Below are positions 50,805 to 59,182 of a stretch of DNA of 64,000 bases, piece by piece. This DNA comes from Winogradskyella sp. (GTDB lineage: Bacteria; Bacteroidota; Bacteroidia; Flavobacteriales; Flavobacteriaceae), in contig JAOEWO010000007.1 in assembly GCA_028383925.1 (NCBI GenBank), forward strand, positions 15,164-79,163, in the 5' to 3' direction. Numbering within the stretch: the stretch's first letter is position 1; every line of letters begins with the position of its first letter. The position numbers and the translations under genes are program-made. Below the pieces are notes generated by a model. The model saw only the letters and a list, made by a program, of their open reading frames with translations. It was not told the origin of the DNA and searched no databases.

Positions 50805-50922
50805 AAATGAAATTCATTTTGCAAGTCTTAGCTTTATAGGGTAACTATAAAATGTCTAGTTAAATTAATCACATTGAAAAACGGGATGTCAAATTTCCTT
50901 AGAAATCATCCTCTAAAATCCT

Positions 50923-50930
50923 TATTTTTG
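50923..50930 (+). promoter_or_regulatory. -7 element for the kynurenine cluster
   Basis: TATTTTTG 24 nt before TTG 50955. Confidence 0.6.
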
Positions 50931-50954
50931 TTACAAACCGAAAATCAATTCAAA

Positions 50955-52256
50955 TTGTCCAACTATAAACTTGGTCTTGATTACGCAAAGCAACAAGACA
51001 CTTTAGACGAATTAGCAAACTATAGACAGCAATTTCATATCCCTAAAGACAAAAACGGAAACGCACTTATTTACCTCTGTGGTAATTCGCTAGGGCTACA
51101 ACCAAAAGCTACTAAAACTTATATAAATCAAGAATTAGAAGATTGGGCAAACCTTGGTGTTGACGGACATACGCATGGCAAAAACCCATGGCTTGGTTAC
51201 CATGAATTATTAACAGAAGCCACGGCCAAACTTGTAGGTGCAAAACCTATTGAAGTCGTAACAATGAATTCTTTAACAGCGAATCTTCATTTTATGATGG
51301 CTTCGTTTTACAAGCCTACAAAAGAACGTTATAAAATACTTATTGAAAGTGATGCATTTCCGTCAGATAAGTATGCTGTAGAATCGCAATTACGCCATCA
51401 TGGCTACGATGATAAAGAAGGACTAATACTTTGGAAACCTAGAAAAAATGAAGAGTTATTACGATACGAAGATTTAGAAGAAATTCTTGAAGCCCACGGC
51501 AGTGAAATCGCTTTAGTAATGATTGGTGGTGTTAATTACTATACAGGTCAGTTTTTCGATTTTAAACGCATTACCAAACTCGGCCATAAGCAAGGTTGTA
51601 TGGTAGGTTTTGATTGTGCACACGGTGCCGGAAACGTAGATTTAGATTTACACAACTCAGGTGCAGACTTTGCCGTTTGGTGCACCTACAAGTACATGAA
51701 TTCTGGGCCAGGTAGCTTGTCTGGGTGTTTTGTGCACGAGCGTCATGCACATACTAAAGATTTAAACCGTTTTACAGGTTGGTGGAGTCATAATAAAGCC
51801 ACACGTTTTAATATGCGCCACGAGTTTGATGTTTTGCCAGGCGCAGAAGGCTGGCAATTAAGCAACCCACCTATATTATCTATGGCAGCTATAAAAGCCT
51901 CTCTAGATATGTTTAATGATATTGGTTTTGATAAACTTCTTAAAAAATCTAAAAAACTCACAGGCTATTTTGAGTATCTATTAAAACAATTAGGCGAAGA
52001 TACCATTAGAATTATTACACCAGAAAACCCTGATGAACGTGGTTGCCAGTTATCTATACAAGTATTAAAAGCAGACAAATCACTGCACGATAAACTAACC
52101 AAAGCCGGTGTTGTGAGCGATTGGCGAGAACCAGATGTTATTAGATGTGCACCAGTGCCATTGTACAACTCTTTTACAGATGTGTATTTGATGGTTGAAA
52201 AAATGAAAACTATTTTAAAAAAGCCTTCCCTAGCCCTTCCAGAGGAAGGGAACTAA
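50955..52256 (+). CDS. kynU: Kynureninase
   Basis: YLCGNSLGLQP, MNSLTANLH, FPSD, DCAHGAGN, WCTYKYMNSGPG, GWWSH, DWREPDVIR; TTG 50955 chosen as start. Confidence 0.96.
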   Translation: MSNYKLGLDYAKQQDTLDELANYRQQFHIPKDKNGNALIYLCGNSLGLQPKATKTYINQELEDWANLGVDGHTHGKNPWLGYHELLTEATAKLVGAKPIEVVTMNSLTANLHFMMASFYKPTKERYKILIESDAFPSDKYAVESQLRHHGYDDKEGLILWKPRKNEELLRYEDLEEILEAHGSEIALVMIGGVNYYTGQFFDFKRITKLGHKQGCMVGFDCAHGAGNVDLDLHNSGADFAVWCTYKYMNSGPGSLSGCFVHERHAHTKDLNRFTGWWSHNKATRFNMRHEFDVLPGAEGWQLSNPPILSMAAIKASLDMFNDIGFDKLLKKSKKLTGYFEYLLKQLGEDTIRIITPENPDERGCQLSIQVLKADKSLHDKLTKAGVVSDWREPDVIRCAPVPLYNSFTDVYLMVEKMKTILKKPSLALPEEGN

Positions 52257-52338
52257 TGATTAATATAAAGATGAATTCCAATACAGACAAAAGTAACAGT
52301 AAAAAGGTCTTCCCTTCTGGGGAAGATTTAGAAGGGCC
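52223..52338. repeat. REP-like inverted pair, family B, with both arms inside coding sequence
   Basis: Left GCCTTCCCTAGCCCTTCCAGAGGAAGGGAAC (52223-52253, end of kynU); right GGTCTTCCCTTCTGGGGAAGATTTAGAAGGGCC (52306-52338, start of kmo). Confidence 0.75.
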
Positions 52339-53770
52339 TACCCAAAACATATTAATTATAGGAGCGGGACTTTGCGGAAGTTTACTAGCATTAAGACTAG
52401 GACAACGCGGTTACAATGTTACCGTTTACGAAATGCGAACAGATTTACGTAAAACAGACATCTCTGCTGGCCGTTCTATAAACCTATCATTATCAGATCG
52501 CGGTATTAAAGCTATGAAAATGGTAGGCCTCGAAGACAAAGTAAAAACACTCTGTATTCCTATGAATGGTCGTATGTTACACGACAGAGAAGGCAACACC
52601 TTTCTATCTAATTACAGTGGTCGCGATCATGAATATATTAATTCAATATCGCGAGGAGAACTCAATGCCCTACTTTTAGACGAAGCCGAAAAACATGAAA
52701 ATGTGACCATTCATTTCAATAAAAAATGTACCGCTGTCAATTTCGAAAAAACCACTGCTAGTTTTCAAGATTATATTACAAAAGATGAGTTTATAGAAGA
52801 TGCAGATTGTATAATTGCCACAGATGGTGCAGGCTCTGCACTACGACGAAGTTATTTTTTAGAACGTAAATTCTTATTTAGCTTTTCGCAAAACTACTTA
52901 ACACATGGCTATAAAGAACTAAGTATCTTACCCACTGAAACTGGCGATTACAAAACCTATAAAAATGCATTACATATTTGGCCAAGAGGCGATTTTATGA
53001 TTATTGCATTACCAAATTTAGATGGCAGTTTTACAGTAACGCTATTTTTAAGTTATGCTGAAGGCGAATACAATTTTAATAATTTAACCACACCAGAAAT
53101 TGTTACGGAGTTCTTTCAAAAAGAATTTCCAGATGCTTTAGCATTAATGCCCAATTTAGTTGAAGATTTCTTTGAAAACCCAACAGCACCATTAGGCACC
53201 GTAAAATGCTCACCATGGCATTATAAAGGCAACACACTACTTATGGGAGATTCTGCACATGCTATTGTACCATTTTACGGACAAGGAATGAACGCATCTT
53301 TTGAAGATGTTGTAGAATTTGACAACGTATTAGAGCAAAATTTAGACAGCTGGGAAGCTACTTTTGAAGCTTACGAAAAAAACAGAAAAAAAGATACGGA
53401 TGCCATTGCAGATTTAGCTGTTGATAATTTTCACGAAATGAAGAGCCATGTTGGTCAAGCCATTTTTCAAGAAAAACGAAAAATAGAAATGGCTTTAGAA
53501 AAAGAGTTTCCAAACACTTATTCATCAAAATACAGTTTAGTTACCTTTAATGAACATATTGGCTACCGAGAAGCCATGGTTAGAGGTCGTGCACAAGACA
53601 AGGCTATTTTAAATATGTTAAAAGATGGAGACATCTCTACTGATTTTATTGTAAGCGGAAACGAAGGAGTCGACATAACAGACAAAGTCGTTTTAAAAAC
53701 CATTTTAGAAAAAGTAAAAATAGAAACTGAGGCGATTTTAGATGAAGATAAAATTGCAGGGTTGAGTTAA
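52256..53770 (+). CDS. kmo: Kynurenine 3-monooxygenase
   Basis: GAGLCG, GRSINLSLSDRG, DGAGS, ALHIWPRG, GDSAHAIVPFYGQGMNASFED; alternative ATG at 52271. Confidence 0.95.
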   Translation: MINIKMNSNTDKSNSKKVFPSGEDLEGPTQNILIIGAGLCGSLLALRLGQRGYNVTVYEMRTDLRKTDISAGRSINLSLSDRGIKAMKMVGLEDKVKTLCIPMNGRMLHDREGNTFLSNYSGRDHEYINSISRGELNALLLDEAEKHENVTIHFNKKCTAVNFEKTTASFQDYITKDEFIEDADCIIATDGAGSALRRSYFLERKFLFSFSQNYLTHGYKELSILPTETGDYKTYKNALHIWPRGDFMIIALPNLDGSFTVTLFLSYAEGEYNFNNLTTPEIVTEFFQKEFPDALALMPNLVEDFFENPTAPLGTVKCSPWHYKGNTLLMGDSAHAIVPFYGQGMNASFEDVVEFDNVLEQNLDSWEATFEAYEKNRKKDTDAIADLAVDNFHEMKSHVGQAIFQEKRKIEMALEKEFPNTYSSKYSLVTFNEHIGYREAMVRGRAQDKAILNMLKDGDISTDFIVSGNEGVDITDKVVLKTILEKVKIETEAILDEDKIAGLS

Positions 53771-53774
53771 AAAA

Positions 53775-53948
53775 GCCATCCTAAACTTCGCTAAAGGAAC
53801 TGAAAACAGAATTAACCTGCAAGGTTTTAAAAACCTTATAAGTTTAAAAAGTAGGATAAAGCATGGTTTAAGAACTGAACAATTTAATAATAACTTAAAA
53901 CTCAAATGCCCATATTGAGTTTTTCCCTCTGGGGAAATTAAAAAGGGC
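53775..53948. repeat. Degenerate family B inverted pair with a nested family C palindrome
   Basis: Left GCCATCCTAAACTTCGCTAAAGGAAC; nested AACCTGCAAGGTTTTAAAAACCTTATAAGTT (53814-53844); right GTTTTTCCCTCTGGGGAAATTAAAAAGGGC (53919-53948). Confidence 0.65.
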
Positions 53949-53959
53949 TTTTTTTTATT

Positions 53960-54367
53960 ATGAATGAAGTAACACCAAGAGGAGCATATCCACACGTTAA
54001 ACAAGTAGGCGATTTTATTTTTGTATCAGGCACAAGTTCTCGCAGACCAGACAATACCATTGCAGGAGTAGATATTATTGACGAAATGGGAACCAAAAAG
54101 CTTAACGCTTATACCCAAACCCAGGAAGTATTAAAACACATAGAGGGTAATTTAGCCAAAGTTGGAGCTTCATTAAAAGATGTCGTAGACGTTACGTCTT
54201 TTTTAGTGAATATGAATGATTTTGCTGATTACAATAGAGCCTATGGTGAGTTCTTTGAAAAACAAACAGGACCAACCAGAACAACGGTTGCTGTACACCA
54301 ATTACCACATCCTGATTTGGTGATTGAAATTAAGGTAATGGCCTACAAACCAATTACTACCAAGTAG
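53960..54367 (+). CDS. RidA/YjgF-family protein, probable 2-aminomuconate deaminase
   Basis: [38 protein letters not shown] resemble NbaF/AmnD-type deaminases; pathway context. Confidence 0.85.
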
Positions 54368-54513: not shown

Positions 54514-55992
54514 GTGACAAAAAAACTAACAGATAAAGATATTCCTGCCTTCGCAGAAATTAAAAACTACATAAACGGTAAGTTTCATAATCCAATCCAT
54601 AATAACTGGATAGACAACTATAATCCTTCAAATGGGGAGATTTATGGACAAATACCCAACTCTTCAAAAGAAGATGTAGAAAACGCATACAAAGCTGCCA
54701 AAACTGCATTTCCGAGTTGGTCGCAAACCACGTTAGAAGAACGCAGTAGAATTCTTATAAAAATTTCAGAATTACTAGAAGCCAACCTGCAACGTTTTGC
54801 AGAAGCAGAATCTAAAGACAATGGTAAACCAATCGCTTTAGCTAAAGCTATAGACATACCAAGAGCGGCAAGTAATTTTAGATTTTTTGGAAACGCCATT
54901 ACGCAATTTGCTAGCGAAAGTCACGAAAGTATTGGCCAAAATGCTATTAATTATACGTTGCGTCAACCTATTGGAGTTGTAGGTTGTATTTCACCTTGGA
55001 ACCTTCCACTCTACTTATTTACATGGAAAATAGCACCAGCAATTGCAGCAGGAAACTGCGTTGTTGCAAAACCAAGCGAAGTCACACCTATGACAGCCTA
55101 TTTATTAGGTGAAATTTGTAACGAAGCAGGCTTACCAAAAGGAGTTTTAAATATTGTGCACGGACTAGGAGGCACAACAGGGCAAGCTATTGTAGAACAT
55201 AAAAACATTAAAGCAATTAGCTTTACAGGTGGTACAACAACAGGAGCACATATTGCACGCGTTGCTGCACCAATGTTTAAAAAACTATCTTTAGAATTGG
55301 GTGGTAAAAACCCAAACATCATTTTTGCAGATTGTGATTATGAAGATATGCTAGACACAACGGTGCGTTCGTCATTTGCCAATCAAGGTCAAATTTGTTT
55401 GTGCGGAAGTCGTATTTTTGTTGAAGCGTCTATTTACGAAAAGTTTAAAGCCGACTTTATTACAAAAGTAAAGGCACTAAAAGTTGGTCATCCGTCTGAA
55501 GCAGACACCAATATTGGTGCTTTGGTTTCTAAACCACATTTAGAAAAAGTAAAAGCATACATCGCAATTGCAAAAGAAGAAAACGGAACTGTTTTATGCG
55601 GTGGTAATGAAGTAACAGTTAAAGGTTTTGAAAAAGGATATTATCTTGAACCTACAGTGATTGAAGTACCACATGATGAATGCAGAGTTAACCAAGAAGA
55701 AGTATTTGGCCCTGTGGTTACTATAATGCCTTTTAACACAGAAGATGACGTTCTGCTAATGGCAAACAAAGTAAAATACGGACTATCTGCAACGCTTTGG
55801 ACAAACAACTTAAAACGCACTATGCGCATCAGTAATGAGCTACAAGCAGGAATCGTTTGGGTAAACACATGGATGATGCGCGATCTAAGAACTCCGTTTG
55901 GCGGCGTAAAAGCATCTGGCGTTGGCAGAGAAGGTGGCTTTGAAGCCTTACGCTTTTTTACAGAAGCAAAAAATGTATGTATTAAATATTAA
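54514..55992 (+). CDS. Aldehyde dehydrogenase, probable 2-aminomuconate 6-semialdehyde dehydrogenase (ALDH8A1/HMSD type)
   Basis: DIPRAASNFRFF, ISPWNLPLYL, FTGGT, LELGGKN, NQGQICLCGSR, RDLRTPFGG; GTG start. Confidence 0.9.
   Translation: MTKKLTDKDIPAFAEIKNYINGKFHNPIHNNWIDNYNPSNGEIYGQIPNSSKEDVENAYKAAKTAFPSWSQTTLEERSRILIKISELLEANLQRFAEAESKDNGKPIALAKAIDIPRAASNFRFFGNAITQFASESHESIGQNAINYTLRQPIGVVGCISPWNLPLYLFTWKIAPAIAAGNCVVAKPSEVTPMTAYLLGEICNEAGLPKGVLNIVHGLGGTTGQAIVEHKNIKAISFTGGTTTGAHIARVAAPMFKKLSLELGGKNPNIIFADCDYEDMLDTTVRSSFANQGQICLCGSRIFVEASIYEKFKADFITKVKALKVGHPSEADTNIGALVSKPHLEKVKAYIAIAKEENGTVLCGGNEVTVKGFEKGYYLEPTVIEVPHDECRVNQEEVFGPVVTIMPFNTEDDVLLMANKVKYGLSATLWTNNLKRTMRISNELQAGIVWVNTWMMRDLRTPFGGVKASGVGREGGFEALRFFTEAKNVCIKY
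54541..54560 (+). repeat. Family A REP-like copy translated in the ALDH N-terminus
   Basis: ATTCCTGCCTTCGCAGAAAT (IPAFAEI); first 15 nt identical to 11201-11215. Confidence 0.7.
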
Positions 55993-56047: not shown

Positions 56048-56575
56048 ATGAAAATTAAATTAACAACTCTAGTCGTACTTTTAATAGGCTCTACAGTATT
56101 TGCGCAAAAAGATTGGACACAATTAACACAAGATGGTTTTGCGATTAGCTATCCTAAAGATTGGGTCTCTAGCGACCAAAAACCACAACCATCAATGCAA
56201 TTTTTATTGATGTCGGACGAAAAATCTCAAATCAATGATAAATTTAGAGAAAATATAAATCTAACTTTAGAAGATTTAGGAGGCCAAACATTGAGCTTAG
56301 AAGACTATGCTAAAATATCGCTAGAGCAAATAACAACACAAATCCCTAGTGCTAAAGTTATTGTAAATGAAACGACTAAAATTAATGATTACGAAGCACG
56401 CTCTGTAATTTGGTCTGCTGATTTTGGAAATGGAATGGTCTTAAAATTTAAACAAGTATTTATATTAAATGGAGGTATGGCTTATGTCTTAACCTTTTCA
56501 TCTACAAGTGCAGAATATAACGATTATATTGAAGTAGGAGATAAAATCCTTAACAGTTTTAAACTCGCCAAATAA
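56048..56575 (+). CDS. Secreted PsbP/DcrB-like protein
   Basis: Signal peptide ending VFA-Q, FAISYPKDW, FRENINL, AYVLTFS, ILNSFKL. Confidence 0.7.
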   Translation: MKIKLTTLVVLLIGSTVFAQKDWTQLTQDGFAISYPKDWVSSDQKPQPSMQFLLMSDEKSQINDKFRENINLTLEDLGGQTLSLEDYAKISLEQITTQIPSAKVIVNETTKINDYEARSVIWSADFGNGMVLKFKQVFILNGGMAYVLTFSSTSAEYNDYIEVGDKILNSFKLAK

Positions 56576-57358
56576 ATGAATTTTAACCTTAACAACAAAC
56601 ACGCATTAGTTTGTGGCAGTACAGCAGGTATAGGTAAAGCAACAGCTTTAGCACTAGCAGAAGAAGGTGTAATAATCACTCTAATTGCCAGAAACGAAGA
56701 TAAGCTAAAAGCCACGCTTGCAGAGTTACCTCAACACAGACCACATAATTATATTGTAGCAGATTTTTCTAACCCTATAGATTTAAAACAAAAAGTGAGT
56801 GATTACATTTCTAATCATCATGGGTTTCATATCTTAATTAACAATACAGGCGGACCAAAAGGTGGACCAGTGTTTTCTGCAGATATCTCTGAATTTGAAA
56901 GCGCCTTTACACAACACCTTAAATGCAATCATGTATTAGCACAAAGTGTCGTTCCTTTTATGAAAACTGAAGGTTTTGGAAGAATTATTAATGTAATTTC
57001 TACATCTGTAAAACAACCCTTAGATGGCTTAGGTGTAAGTAATACTATTAGAGGTGCTGTTGCAAATTGGAGCAAGACTTTAGCGAATGAATTGGGTCAA
57101 TTTGGCATAACAGTAAATAACGTATTACCAGGTGCAACAGGCACAGAACGTTTAACTGAAATTATAAAAAACAAATCGGCTAAAATGGGTAATACAGAAG
57201 AAGAAGCTGCAAATGCTATGAAAAGTGCCGTACCTGCAAAACGCTTTGCTAAACCCGAAGAATTGGCAGATGCTATAACATTTTTAGCAAGTGAGCGTGC
57301 TGGTTACATTAATGGTATTAACTTACCTGTTGATGGAGGACGTACAAAAAGTTTGTAA
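56576..57358 (+). CDS. Atypical short-chain dehydrogenase/reductase (SxxxR in place of YxxxK)
   Basis: CGSTAGIG Rossmann motif, LINNTGGP, GLGVSNTIR, NNVLPG, PVDGG. Confidence 0.9.
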   Translation: MNFNLNNKHALVCGSTAGIGKATALALAEEGVIITLIARNEDKLKATLAELPQHRPHNYIVADFSNPIDLKQKVSDYISNHHGFHILINNTGGPKGGPVFSADISEFESAFTQHLKCNHVLAQSVVPFMKTEGFGRIINVISTSVKQPLDGLGVSNTIRGAVANWSKTLANELGQFGITVNNVLPGATGTERLTEIIKNKSAKMGNTEEEAANAMKSAVPAKRFAKPEELADAITFLASERAGYINGINLPVDGGRTKSL

Positions 57359-57458: not shown

Positions 57459-57995
57459 ATGAGCAAACTGTTTCCACCCCTGAATTTTAAAGCTTGGATT
57501 GAAGAAAACCGACACTTATTAAAACCACCTGTTGGCAACAAAGTGGTATGGAAAGATGGTGATTTTATTGTAATGGTTGTTGGTGGACCAAACAATAGAA
57601 AAGATTATCATTATAATGAAACACCAGAATTTTTCTATCAAATAGAAGGTGATATGGTTTTAAAAGTTATAGACGAAGGTGTACCAAAGGATATTGATAT
57701 AAGAGAAGGAGACATCTTTTTATTACCACCAAAGGTGCCGCATTCTCCTCAACGTGGCCCAAATACAGTGGGCTTAGTTATAGAATACCCAAGAGAAAAA
57801 GGAGTAAAAGATGCGCTACTTTGGTTTTGCGAAAACTGTACCACCAAACTTTACGAAGAAGATTTTACAGTAGAAAATATTGAAACCGATATGCCCGTAA
57901 TATTTGACAACTATTATGGTGATGCAAATAAACGCAGCTGCCCAAATTGTAAAGCTGTAATGCAACCGCCAAAAAAAGTAAAGGTAGAAGACTAA
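57459..57995 (+). CDS. nbaC: 3-hydroxyanthranilate 3,4-dioxygenase
   Basis: [30 protein letters not shown], rubredoxin-like CENC/CPNC. Confidence 0.96.
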
Positions 57996-58093: not shown

Positions 58094-59182
58094 ATGGAAC
58101 AAAAACGAAAACTTAGAATAAACGGCCACTCACACTTATTACCTTACCCAGAGGACATCCCTCAGTTTATGAAAGATAAAGGTATTTTTTGGGTAGATAA
58201 GGATCGTAAATTTATGCTTCAAAAAGATTGGAATCGCCCAATCACAGATTCTAGTTTCTTTTTAGATGAGAAACTCGAGTGGATGGAGCGCTATAAATTA
58301 GACCATGCTGTAGTTTTAAATTTATCGCAATTGTATGGCAACGGACTTAGGGTTGAAGAGATGAAGCAAGCCTTAAGGTTTCAAAATGACTTTAATGCAA
58401 AAGTTCAAAAAGAGCACCCAAGTAAGTTTACATGTGGCTTTGTAGTACACCCAGGTTTTGTTCAGGGTGCGTGCTGGGAGATTAAGCGTTGTGTTGAAGA
58501 ATTAGGCATGCAATTACTTTGTTTACCTACGCATTACATGGATACTATTGGGACGTGGCGTTGTATTTTTGATGAAGAAAATGAACCCATTTTTGAGCTT
58601 GCAAACAAATATAATTTAGCCATAGAAATACACCCTTATGATGGTGAAAAATTTATAAAATTAGAAAATACCTCATGGCGGTTTCATTTAATTTGGATGC
58701 TAGCACAATGTGCAGATGCTTATCATTTTTTAACTCTTAACGGCTACCAAGATAAATACCCTAATATGAGAACCTGTTTTGCTCATGGCGGACAATTAGC
58801 ACAAATTAATTTGGGCAGACGTATTCAAGGATTTGATGGTAGACCCGATTTATTTGAAGGTAAAAGTCACCCAAGAAAAGCTGTTGGACATAAAAACATA
58901 TTTTTTGACACCCTTGTGCACGATACAGGTGGCTTAGAGTTACTTATTAAAAACCAAGGTTCTAAACAAGTTTTAATGGGCTTAGACGACCCATATCCTT
59001 TAGGAGAAATGGAAAGCGAAAAGCAATCGTCTTATCCTGGTAAAATTTTAGATTTAGCGATAGAACGAGATATTATTACAGAAACTGAGCGCGATGCCAT
59101 TTGGGAAGATAATGTTATACAATGGCTTTGTGGTGATGATGAAGTGGCAAAACAGAAGTTAATTTCTAGAATACTATCTTAA
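58094..59182 (+). CDS. Amidohydrolase-2 family protein, probable ACMS decarboxylase
   Basis: NGHSH, EIHP, AHGG, FDTLVHD, GLDDPYPLGE correspond to ACMSD metal motifs; follows the 3-HAO gene. Confidence 0.8.
   Translation: MEQKRKLRINGHSHLLPYPEDIPQFMKDKGIFWVDKDRKFMLQKDWNRPITDSSFFLDEKLEWMERYKLDHAVVLNLSQLYGNGLRVEEMKQALRFQNDFNAKVQKEHPSKFTCGFVVHPGFVQGACWEIKRCVEELGMQLLCLPTHYMDTIGTWRCIFDEENEPIFELANKYNLAIEIHPYDGEKFIKLENTSWRFHLIWMLAQCADAYHFLTLNGYQDKYPNMRTCFAHGGQLAQINLGRRIQGFDGRPDLFEGKSHPRKAVGHKNIFFDTLVHDTGGLELLIKNQGSKQVLMGLDDPYPLGEMESEKQSSYPGKILDLAIERDIITETERDAIWEDNVIQWLCGDDEVAKQKLISRILS

Follow-up and report, generated by a model that had tools for sequence, protein, structure and literature searches.

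An SDR without the catalytic tyrosine, encoded in a kynurenine gene cluster of Winogradskyella sp., is probably an NADPH-dependent C=C reductase that converts 4-oxalocrotonate (2-oxohex-3-enedioate) to 2-oxoadipate. A reaction named 'oxalocrotonate reductase' is still drawn between 2-aminomuconate and 2-oxoadipate in the legend to Fig. 4 of a 2026 review (PMC12899273), and we found no paper in the open-access literature that assigns this SDR clade, or a gene for oxalocrotonate reductase. Our candidate is placed by its gene neighbourhood, by its exchange for a decarboxylase/hydratase pair in related genomes, and by its characterised relatives, which are C=C reductases.

The SDR lies in a kynurenine gene cluster

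The window, a stretch of 64,000 nucleotides from one contig, contains a cluster with the gene order kynU-kmo-rid-aldh-(PsbP-like insert)-SDR-hao-acmsd:

50874..52256, forward strand: kynureninase (TIGR01814 over its cut-off; the start is probably slightly downstream of the called TTG)
52256..53770, forward strand: kynurenine 3-monooxygenase (KMO; FAD-monooxygenase domain and position)
53960..54367, forward strand: Rid-family 2-aminomuconate deaminase (best PDB match 6izh)
54514..55992, forward strand: putative 2-aminomuconate semialdehyde dehydrogenase, HMSD/ALDH8A1 type (ALDH; best model TIGR03216, below its cut-off, and synteny)
56048..56575, forward strand: PsbP-like protein, an insert in the cluster (in 12 of 80 related loci; not a conserved part)
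56576..57358, forward strand: Tyr-less SDR of the His114/Arg256 clade, predicted NADPH-dependent 2-oxohex-3-enedioate (4-oxalocrotonate) reductase (motifs, alignment and model)
57459..57995, forward strand: 3-hydroxyanthranilate 3,4-dioxygenase (HAO; NF009763 and TIGR03037 over their cut-offs)
58094..59182, forward strand: ACMSD, divergent type (best PDB matches human and bacterial ACMSD, E 1.2e-24)

The cluster thus holds every upper-pathway enzyme that we looked for: kynU, KMO, HAO, ACMSD, the semialdehyde dehydrogenase and the deaminase. The Rid protein matched the solved 2-aminomuconate deaminase 6izh with an E-value of 1.8e-48, the next match being at 7.9e-16. All genes of the cluster other than the SDR can be assigned, which agrees with the preliminary description of this DNA, where the SDR was singled out as the only enzyme lacking an assignable step. 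Genes for a decarboxylase, hydratase, aldolase or acetaldehyde dehydrogenase are absent from the cluster around the SDR, and none of the 4-oxalocrotonate decarboxylase/hydratase type was found in the source genome (G000), which is 83% complete. Elsewhere this genome encodes a TDO-family match, the E1 component of 2-oxoglutarate dehydrogenase and glutaryl-CoA dehydrogenase (GCDH). A search of five genomes (G000 and four complete relatives) for alternative exits from the pathway found no HglS, PF01361 tautomerase or ASPDH (PF01958) in any of the five; FAA-hydrolase matches were present.

Some further observations concern the locus itself. The PsbP-like gene abuts the start of the SDR. Short G+C-rich hairpins occur within the coding ends at the kynU/kmo junction (52228-52326) and in the spacer that precedes rid (53770-53960), and a promoter scan gave hits at chance level (36 vs 32.1). 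RNA runs held at most 0.08 of the words, and the few short identical contigs that touch the SDR do not thereby show transcription. Copies of the ACMSD at 58094-59182 with 59-90% identity were found in 7 of the 220 genomes of our phylum sample, the usual Bacteroidota/human type being only 25-31% identical to it. The nadC gene was not found in the 83% complete source genome and was found in four of four other genomes tested.

An active site that departs from the classical tetrad

The open reading frame at 56576-57358 (forward strand) encodes a protein of 260 amino acids. It carries the glycine motif GSTAGIG at residues 14-20, as expected of a Rossmann fold, scored over the cut-off for PF13561/PF00106, and gave a structural model with a TM-score of about 0.9 to SDRs. 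Its only tyrosines are residues 59, 77 and 244. The sequence SNTIR, which the preliminary description had placed at the YxxxK position, occupies residues 155-159 (nucleotide 57038), and an alignment with two classical SDRs from the fetched loci bears this placement out: the Y and K of YxxxK are matched by S155 and R159, and the catalytic Ser by S142. With one of these two SDRs, H114 also aligns to the tetrad Asn. In place of the classical Asn-Ser-Tyr-Lys tetrad the SDR therefore reads H114-S142-S155-R159. Among 35 aligned orthologs (34 others and the SDR itself, one copy being from a pathway-less genome), R39, S142, S155, N156, R159, R192 and R256 were invariant and H114 was present in 34. The earlier reading of IARN after strand 2 also held: the motif is found at residues 37-40, no acidic residue follows the strand, and R39 is kept in all 35.

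FabG models scored the SDR far below their cut-offs. It reached 172 bits against the PRK08339 equivalog, the curated cut-off of which is 339, and it contains SDR domains only (PF00106/PF13561), not the aspartate dehydrogenase family domain PF01958. We take the family label of PRK08339 to be cd05344 (CDD). The SDR is mis-annotated as FabG, and the clade to which it belongs is real and uncharacterised.

The Tyr-less SNxxR signature is a trait of a large subfamily and is not peculiar to the SDR at 56576..57358. Among the 150 best representatives, S155 was conserved in 141 and R159 in 139, H114 in only 78. SNxxR is also found in TM1169, APE0912 and a Burkholderia SDR, and our SDR has the marks of this TM1169/APE0912-like subfamily, with S-N-x-x-R replacing YxxxK and an N-x-GGP motif. 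The top sequence scores were to SNxxR SDRs of unassigned function, some solved as NADP(H) complexes: TM1169 (1o5i), APE0912 (2z1n), the Burkholderia proteins 5va8, 5idx and 5vps, and PRK08339. Unlike the SDR studied here, the TM1169, APE0912 and Burkholderia types have neither His114 nor the GGR end. The pathway is tracked by the His114/Arg256 clade and not by the missing Tyr; non-His relatives in Bacteroidota had no kynurenine neighbours at 11 of 11 loci.

Clade members that carry names come from Bacteroidota, including a named Dysgonomonas cluster, and from Planctomycetota, Gemmatimonadota, Bdellovibrionota and Poseidoniales archaea; Myxococcota and Acidobacteria appear among the matches of a distant clade member. 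No eukaryotic name was found among the named matches, which are only part of all matches (one Atlas cluster was 88% bacterial), and since most matches are unnamed the missing eukaryotes are weak evidence of absence. A search for longer proteins returned nine, none of them a fusion of a clade SDR to a kynurenine enzyme. Six are extended at the N-terminus by sequence in which no Pfam domain was found, apparently through miscalled starts, and two others look chimeric. The ninth is archaeal, a protein of a Ca. Thalassarchaeaceae archaeon (P0385) in which a formyltransferase is fused to a His-type SDR of the clade. Relatives with 34-40% identity overlap a gene of the dihydrodipicolinate-synthase family in 7 of 26 plasmid records (H2, H3, H12, H14, H15, H16, H23), a hint that sister clades serve other 2-oxo-acid pathways.

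The SDR accompanies ACMSD and the semialdehyde dehydrogenase

Linkage was tested within Bacteroidota. The SDR adjoins kynurenine genes in 80 of 80 close loci, and phylum-wide it lies among them, in several gene orders, in 20 of the 31 fetched loci from genomes with both SDR and ACMSD. Of 80 metagenome loci, 63 have a kynurenine neighbour (37 of the 44 that are at least 10 kb long), and none contains a decarboxylase-type gene.

For the phylum we sampled 220 genomes and called the SDR at E<1e-63, which matches the His/Arg clade in loci and tree; this threshold and the one used within the family (at least 59% identity) were chosen after seeing the data. The SDR clade was present in 41 genomes, ACMSD in 38 and HAO in 50. 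The SDR was found in 34 of the 38 ACMSD-positive genomes and was missing from 11 of the 12 that have HAO and no ACMSD, nine of these belonging to one genus. ALDH, Rid and TIGR03218 were searched for in 59 selected genomes of the 220. An ALDH ortholog and a deaminase-type Rid accompany the SDR in 33 of the 34 SDR- and ACMSD-bearing genomes, most of the distant Rid partners being only 35-46% identical to the Rid protein at 53960..54367. None of these genomes had a strong TIGR03218 match, and one had a single weak match. All 59 of the genomes tested for GCDH carry it, which makes its presence uninformative here; in four of the 59, GCDH and the SDR are no more than 10 kb apart.

The four genomes with ACMSD and no SDR are of several kinds. 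In two of them (G165 and G107) there are genes of the decarboxylase and hydratase types, an aldolase and an acetaldehyde dehydrogenase, and a third (G173) is also without ALDH and deaminase. Genome G170 (contig C11, locus L115) has a full tdo-kmo-kynU-kynB-acmsd-hao-rid-aldh set with neither a His-type SDR nor a decarboxylase match in the genome, and a third pathway ending may exist there.

Exchange for a decarboxylase/hydratase ending

The strongest result of the analysis is the profile across the family. In a sample of 200 genomes, one per genus, with SDR orthologs counted at 59% identity or more, 91 had both SDR and ALDH, 13 the SDR only, 6 ALDH only and 90 neither; the SDR is therefore present in 91 of 97 ALDH-bearing genomes. 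Two TIGR03218-type genes occur in all six ALDH-only genomes vs none of the 91 genomes with SDR and ALDH, one of which (G351) has a single such gene; all TIGR03218 matches are below the curated cut-off, so these labels are given on the strength of the best match, the tree and the neighbouring genes. Fisher P values overstate the case, since kin are not independent. In a fast ALDH tree the SDR-less, decarboxylase-bearing genomes fall in about four separate groups. The TIGR03218-type genes lie inside the kynurenine cluster in G339, G307 and G406, in the last two together with an aldolase and acetaldehyde dehydrogenase. Two tests had been proposed in the preliminary description, of linkage to kynurenine genes and of exclusion of 4-oxalocrotonate decarboxylase, and both came out as predicted, the linkage being to ACMSD and ALDH.

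Scoring involved a few decisions. Eight family matches at 44-46% identity were dropped as non-orthologs (two of the eight were inspected, and both were without His114), G436 was scored as SDR-only despite a partial ALDH at the locus, and G442 was scored as having both despite stops. In G351 (contig C33, locus L329) the cluster contains both the SDR and a long-branch decarboxylase-type gene, and the hydratase-type partner was not found; this genome may represent a transitional state in the exchange of one ending for the other.

According to the TIGR03218 description the decarboxylase uses 2-oxohex-3-enedioate, so that the gene it replaces most simply uses the same compound. The 2-aminomuconate route of the Burkholderia cenocepacia type has its upper enzymes and the deaminase in common with the SDR cluster, and its meta-cleavage lower genes (decarboxylase, hydratase, aldolase and acetaldehyde dehydrogenase) appear in relatives that are without the SDR.

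Structure and characterised relatives

The AF2 model of the SDR had a pLDDT of 94.5. Its top Foldseek match was AerF (TM 0.94), including the complex with NADPH and 4-hydroxyphenylpyruvate, followed by NADP-bound Burkholderia SDRs; YwfH ranked 11 (TM 0.91; sequence E 7.7e-30). VIA-align gave a different order: L-sorbose reductase led (Z 36.4; 259 aligned at rmsd 1.8) and AerF came eleventh (Z 33.6; 252 aligned at rmsd 1.6). As AerF was not separated from other SDRs there, the fold alone does not decide.

By sequence the closest characterised relatives are AerF and BacG/YwfH, both NADPH C=C reductases, and the SDR shares with them the fold and, at the Tyr position, a Ser. BacG/YwfH of Bacillus subtilis (PDB 3u49, 3u4c and 3u4d) is about 30% identical and acts in bacilysin biosynthesis. 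Its reaction is a conjugate hydride addition to a 2-oxo-3-enoate, and we take its catalytic residues to be Lys-Tyr-Ser-Asn. The reported conversion by this NADPH reductase is of (epoxy-)3E-H2HPP to H4HPP (PMC9147277). AerF of Microcystis aeruginosa (PDB 6jh7, 6jha and 6jhb) is about 33% identical, and its Ser aligns with S155; the PDB titles name an NADPH complex and a bound 2-oxo acid, and the title of a reference calls the enzyme an NADPH alkenal double-bond reductase. An older review left its role open (PMC3252866). In mint SDRs, replacement of the Tyr is reported to switch between keto- and ene-reduction (PMC4988501).

The likeness to AerF has limits. AerF has K/Y/S/N where our SDR has H114/N118/S155/R159, so that the helix-4 Lys/Tyr and the Asn are missing and the mechanism is not copied from AerF. 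AerF is also biosynthetic (aeruginosin Choi), whereas the SDR cluster is catabolic. The SDR would work like AerF, yet is not an AerF.

Retention of the SDR without the pathway

The ALDH branch is missing from 8 of the 41 clade-bearing phylum genomes and from 13 of the 104 SDR-bearing family genomes. In a quick SDR tree, the pathway-linked sequences enclose eight branch-less His-type SDRs (support 90, not starred). Eight of the 13 SDR-only family genomes have lost just rid and aldh from the cluster, which leaves kynU-kmo-SDR-hao-acmsd, and in G121 and G197 the SDR sits beside kynU alone. In genus g26 (G221; loci L288-L297), eight of the 11 species have lost the cluster, two keep it and one has no SDR match. 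In these eight, kynU-kmo-rid-aldh and the hao-acmsd flank are deleted, and an intact SDR remains between msrA and a methyltransferase. ACMSD was not found in the cluster-less g26 species tested, and in G221 matches to kynU and TDO were missing as well. Pairwise dN/dS among the cluster-less SDRs was 0.05-0.15, which indicates purifying selection; the median for pathway-bearing SDRs was 0.083 (592 of 1596 pairs, those with dS<1.5), and values between distant genomes were saturated and not used.

Retention in genomes without the pathway makes a second substrate, or a wider specificity, probable. It is also an argument for a different role, that of a broad ene-reductase which clears reactive alkenes (muconic semialdehydes, kynurenine-derived enones, other 2-oxo-3-enoates) and so serves damage control and is not a flux step. 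Selection on the SDR after loss of the pathway in g26, its persistence in loci without rid and aldh or beside kynU alone, and the alkenal reductase title of AerF would all suit such an enzyme. We nevertheless consider this role unlikely, since it explains neither why a decarboxylase/hydratase pair is present in every SDR-less ALDH genome and in none of the 91 others, nor why the SDR is absent from 11 of 12 genomes with HAO and no ACMSD. A 4-oxalocrotonate reductase that probably also takes other activated alkenes would explain survival after pathway loss.

The substrate is more probably deaminated

The preliminary description left two substrates side by side, 2-oxohex-3-enedioate and the imine tautomer of 2-aminomuconate. 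A recent preprint reports that human ASPDH is an NAD(P)H-dependent 2-aminomuconate reductase, that its product is 2-aminohex-3-enedioate with no release of ammonia, and that in eukaryotes ASPDH and the fungal deaminase are mutually exclusive, the deaminase product being 2-oxohex-3-enedioate by NMR (bioRxiv 10.64898/2026.06.05.730449). It leaves the steps after ASPDH in animals open, and its main text does not mention SDRs or Bacteroidota. In Trp catabolism, ASPDH and, by prediction, the SDR each supply an NAD(P)H step that follows on that of aminomuconate semialdehyde dehydrogenase. ASPDH differs in that it belongs to the unrelated aspartate dehydrogenase family, acts before deamination, keeps the nitrogen and excludes the deaminase, and this last property argues that an enzyme kept together with the deaminase acts after it.

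Direct reduction of 2-aminomuconate or its imine by the SDR, to 2-oxoadipate and ammonia or to an unsaturated amino acid as with human ASPDH, thus seems improbable to us. Conjugation makes the imine tautomer an acceptor as well, the animal reaction sets a precedent for NAD(P)H reduction of 2-aminomuconate, and the deaminase activity of the distant Rid partners (35-46% identity) is assumed from synteny. But 33 of the 34 genomes retain, next to the SDR, a deaminase that would compete for the substrate, deaminase and reductase exclude each other in eukaryotes according to the same preprint, and it is the deaminated product that the genes found in place of the SDR use. Of the two proposals, C=C reduction of 2-oxohex-3-enedioate is the one favoured by linkage, by decarboxylase exclusion and by the C=C-reductase relatives, and the retained deaminase disfavours the 2-aminomuconate imine.

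Least probable is a reduction by the SDR of the ketone at C2, giving 2-hydroxyhex-3-enedioate or 2-hydroxyadipate, or a role as an isomerase or tautomerase that binds NADP and brings about no net reduction. The absence of a PF01361 tautomerase from five of five genomes formally leaves a place for a tautomerase, and L-sorbose reductase, a ketoreductase, is close in structure. But the SDR lacks the Tyr and Lys that belong to the ketoreductase tetrad, a tautomerase could not substitute for the decarboxylase-hydratase-aldolase route, and the five genomes yielded no enzyme of the HglS type, which serves hydroxy-acid routes.

Proposed reaction and its setting

The SDR is the best candidate for a reductase from 4-oxalocrotonate to 2-oxoadipate, and this is its likely role. 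Its substrate, 2-oxohex-3-enedioate, would be supplied by the neighbouring deaminase. NADPH may be held by Arg39, and hydride would pass to C4 of the 2-oxo-3-enoate in a 1,4-addition, the enolate then being protonated by His114 or by water. Lys146, Arg159, Arg192 and Arg256 are candidate carboxylate binders; the roles suggested for these residues and for His114 derive from conservation. The product 2-oxoadipate would proceed to the 2-oxoglutarate dehydrogenase complex and GCDH.

A corresponding choice has been described for fungi: in Aspergillus, 2-oxohex-3-enedioate may be reduced to 2-oxoadipate or decarboxylated, its fate in fungi is described as open, and an uncharacterised SDR, ATEG_10008, adjoins the fungal cluster (PMC7842363). 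For animals, the suggestion in the preliminary description that this gene would lead to their counterpart finds little support, as the human 2-aminomuconate reductase is reported to be ASPDH and the named matches included no eukaryote; the identification of ASPDH largely supersedes it.

Taking the parts together, we lean towards a broader view: that the textbook orphan 'oxalocrotonate reductase' receives its first gene with the His114/Arg256 clade; that a reductive ending (2-aminomuconate, 4-oxalocrotonate, 2-oxoadipate, glutaryl-CoA) is the default in Bacteroidota and has repeatedly been swapped for a meta-cleavage ending; that the clade reaches Planctomycetota, Gemmatimonadota, Myxococcota, Bdellovibrionota and marine archaea; and that its His-Ser-Ser-Arg site is one not seen in AerF. 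With a named, soluble candidate of 260 amino acids, the oxalocrotonate reductase reaction becomes testable. If the assignment is true, the enzyme could be used for coupling in the search for the steps in fungi and animals, the animal gene itself not being identified by it; a widespread 'FabG' annotation would be corrected, and Trp catabolism would be closed in abundant marine Bacteroidota.
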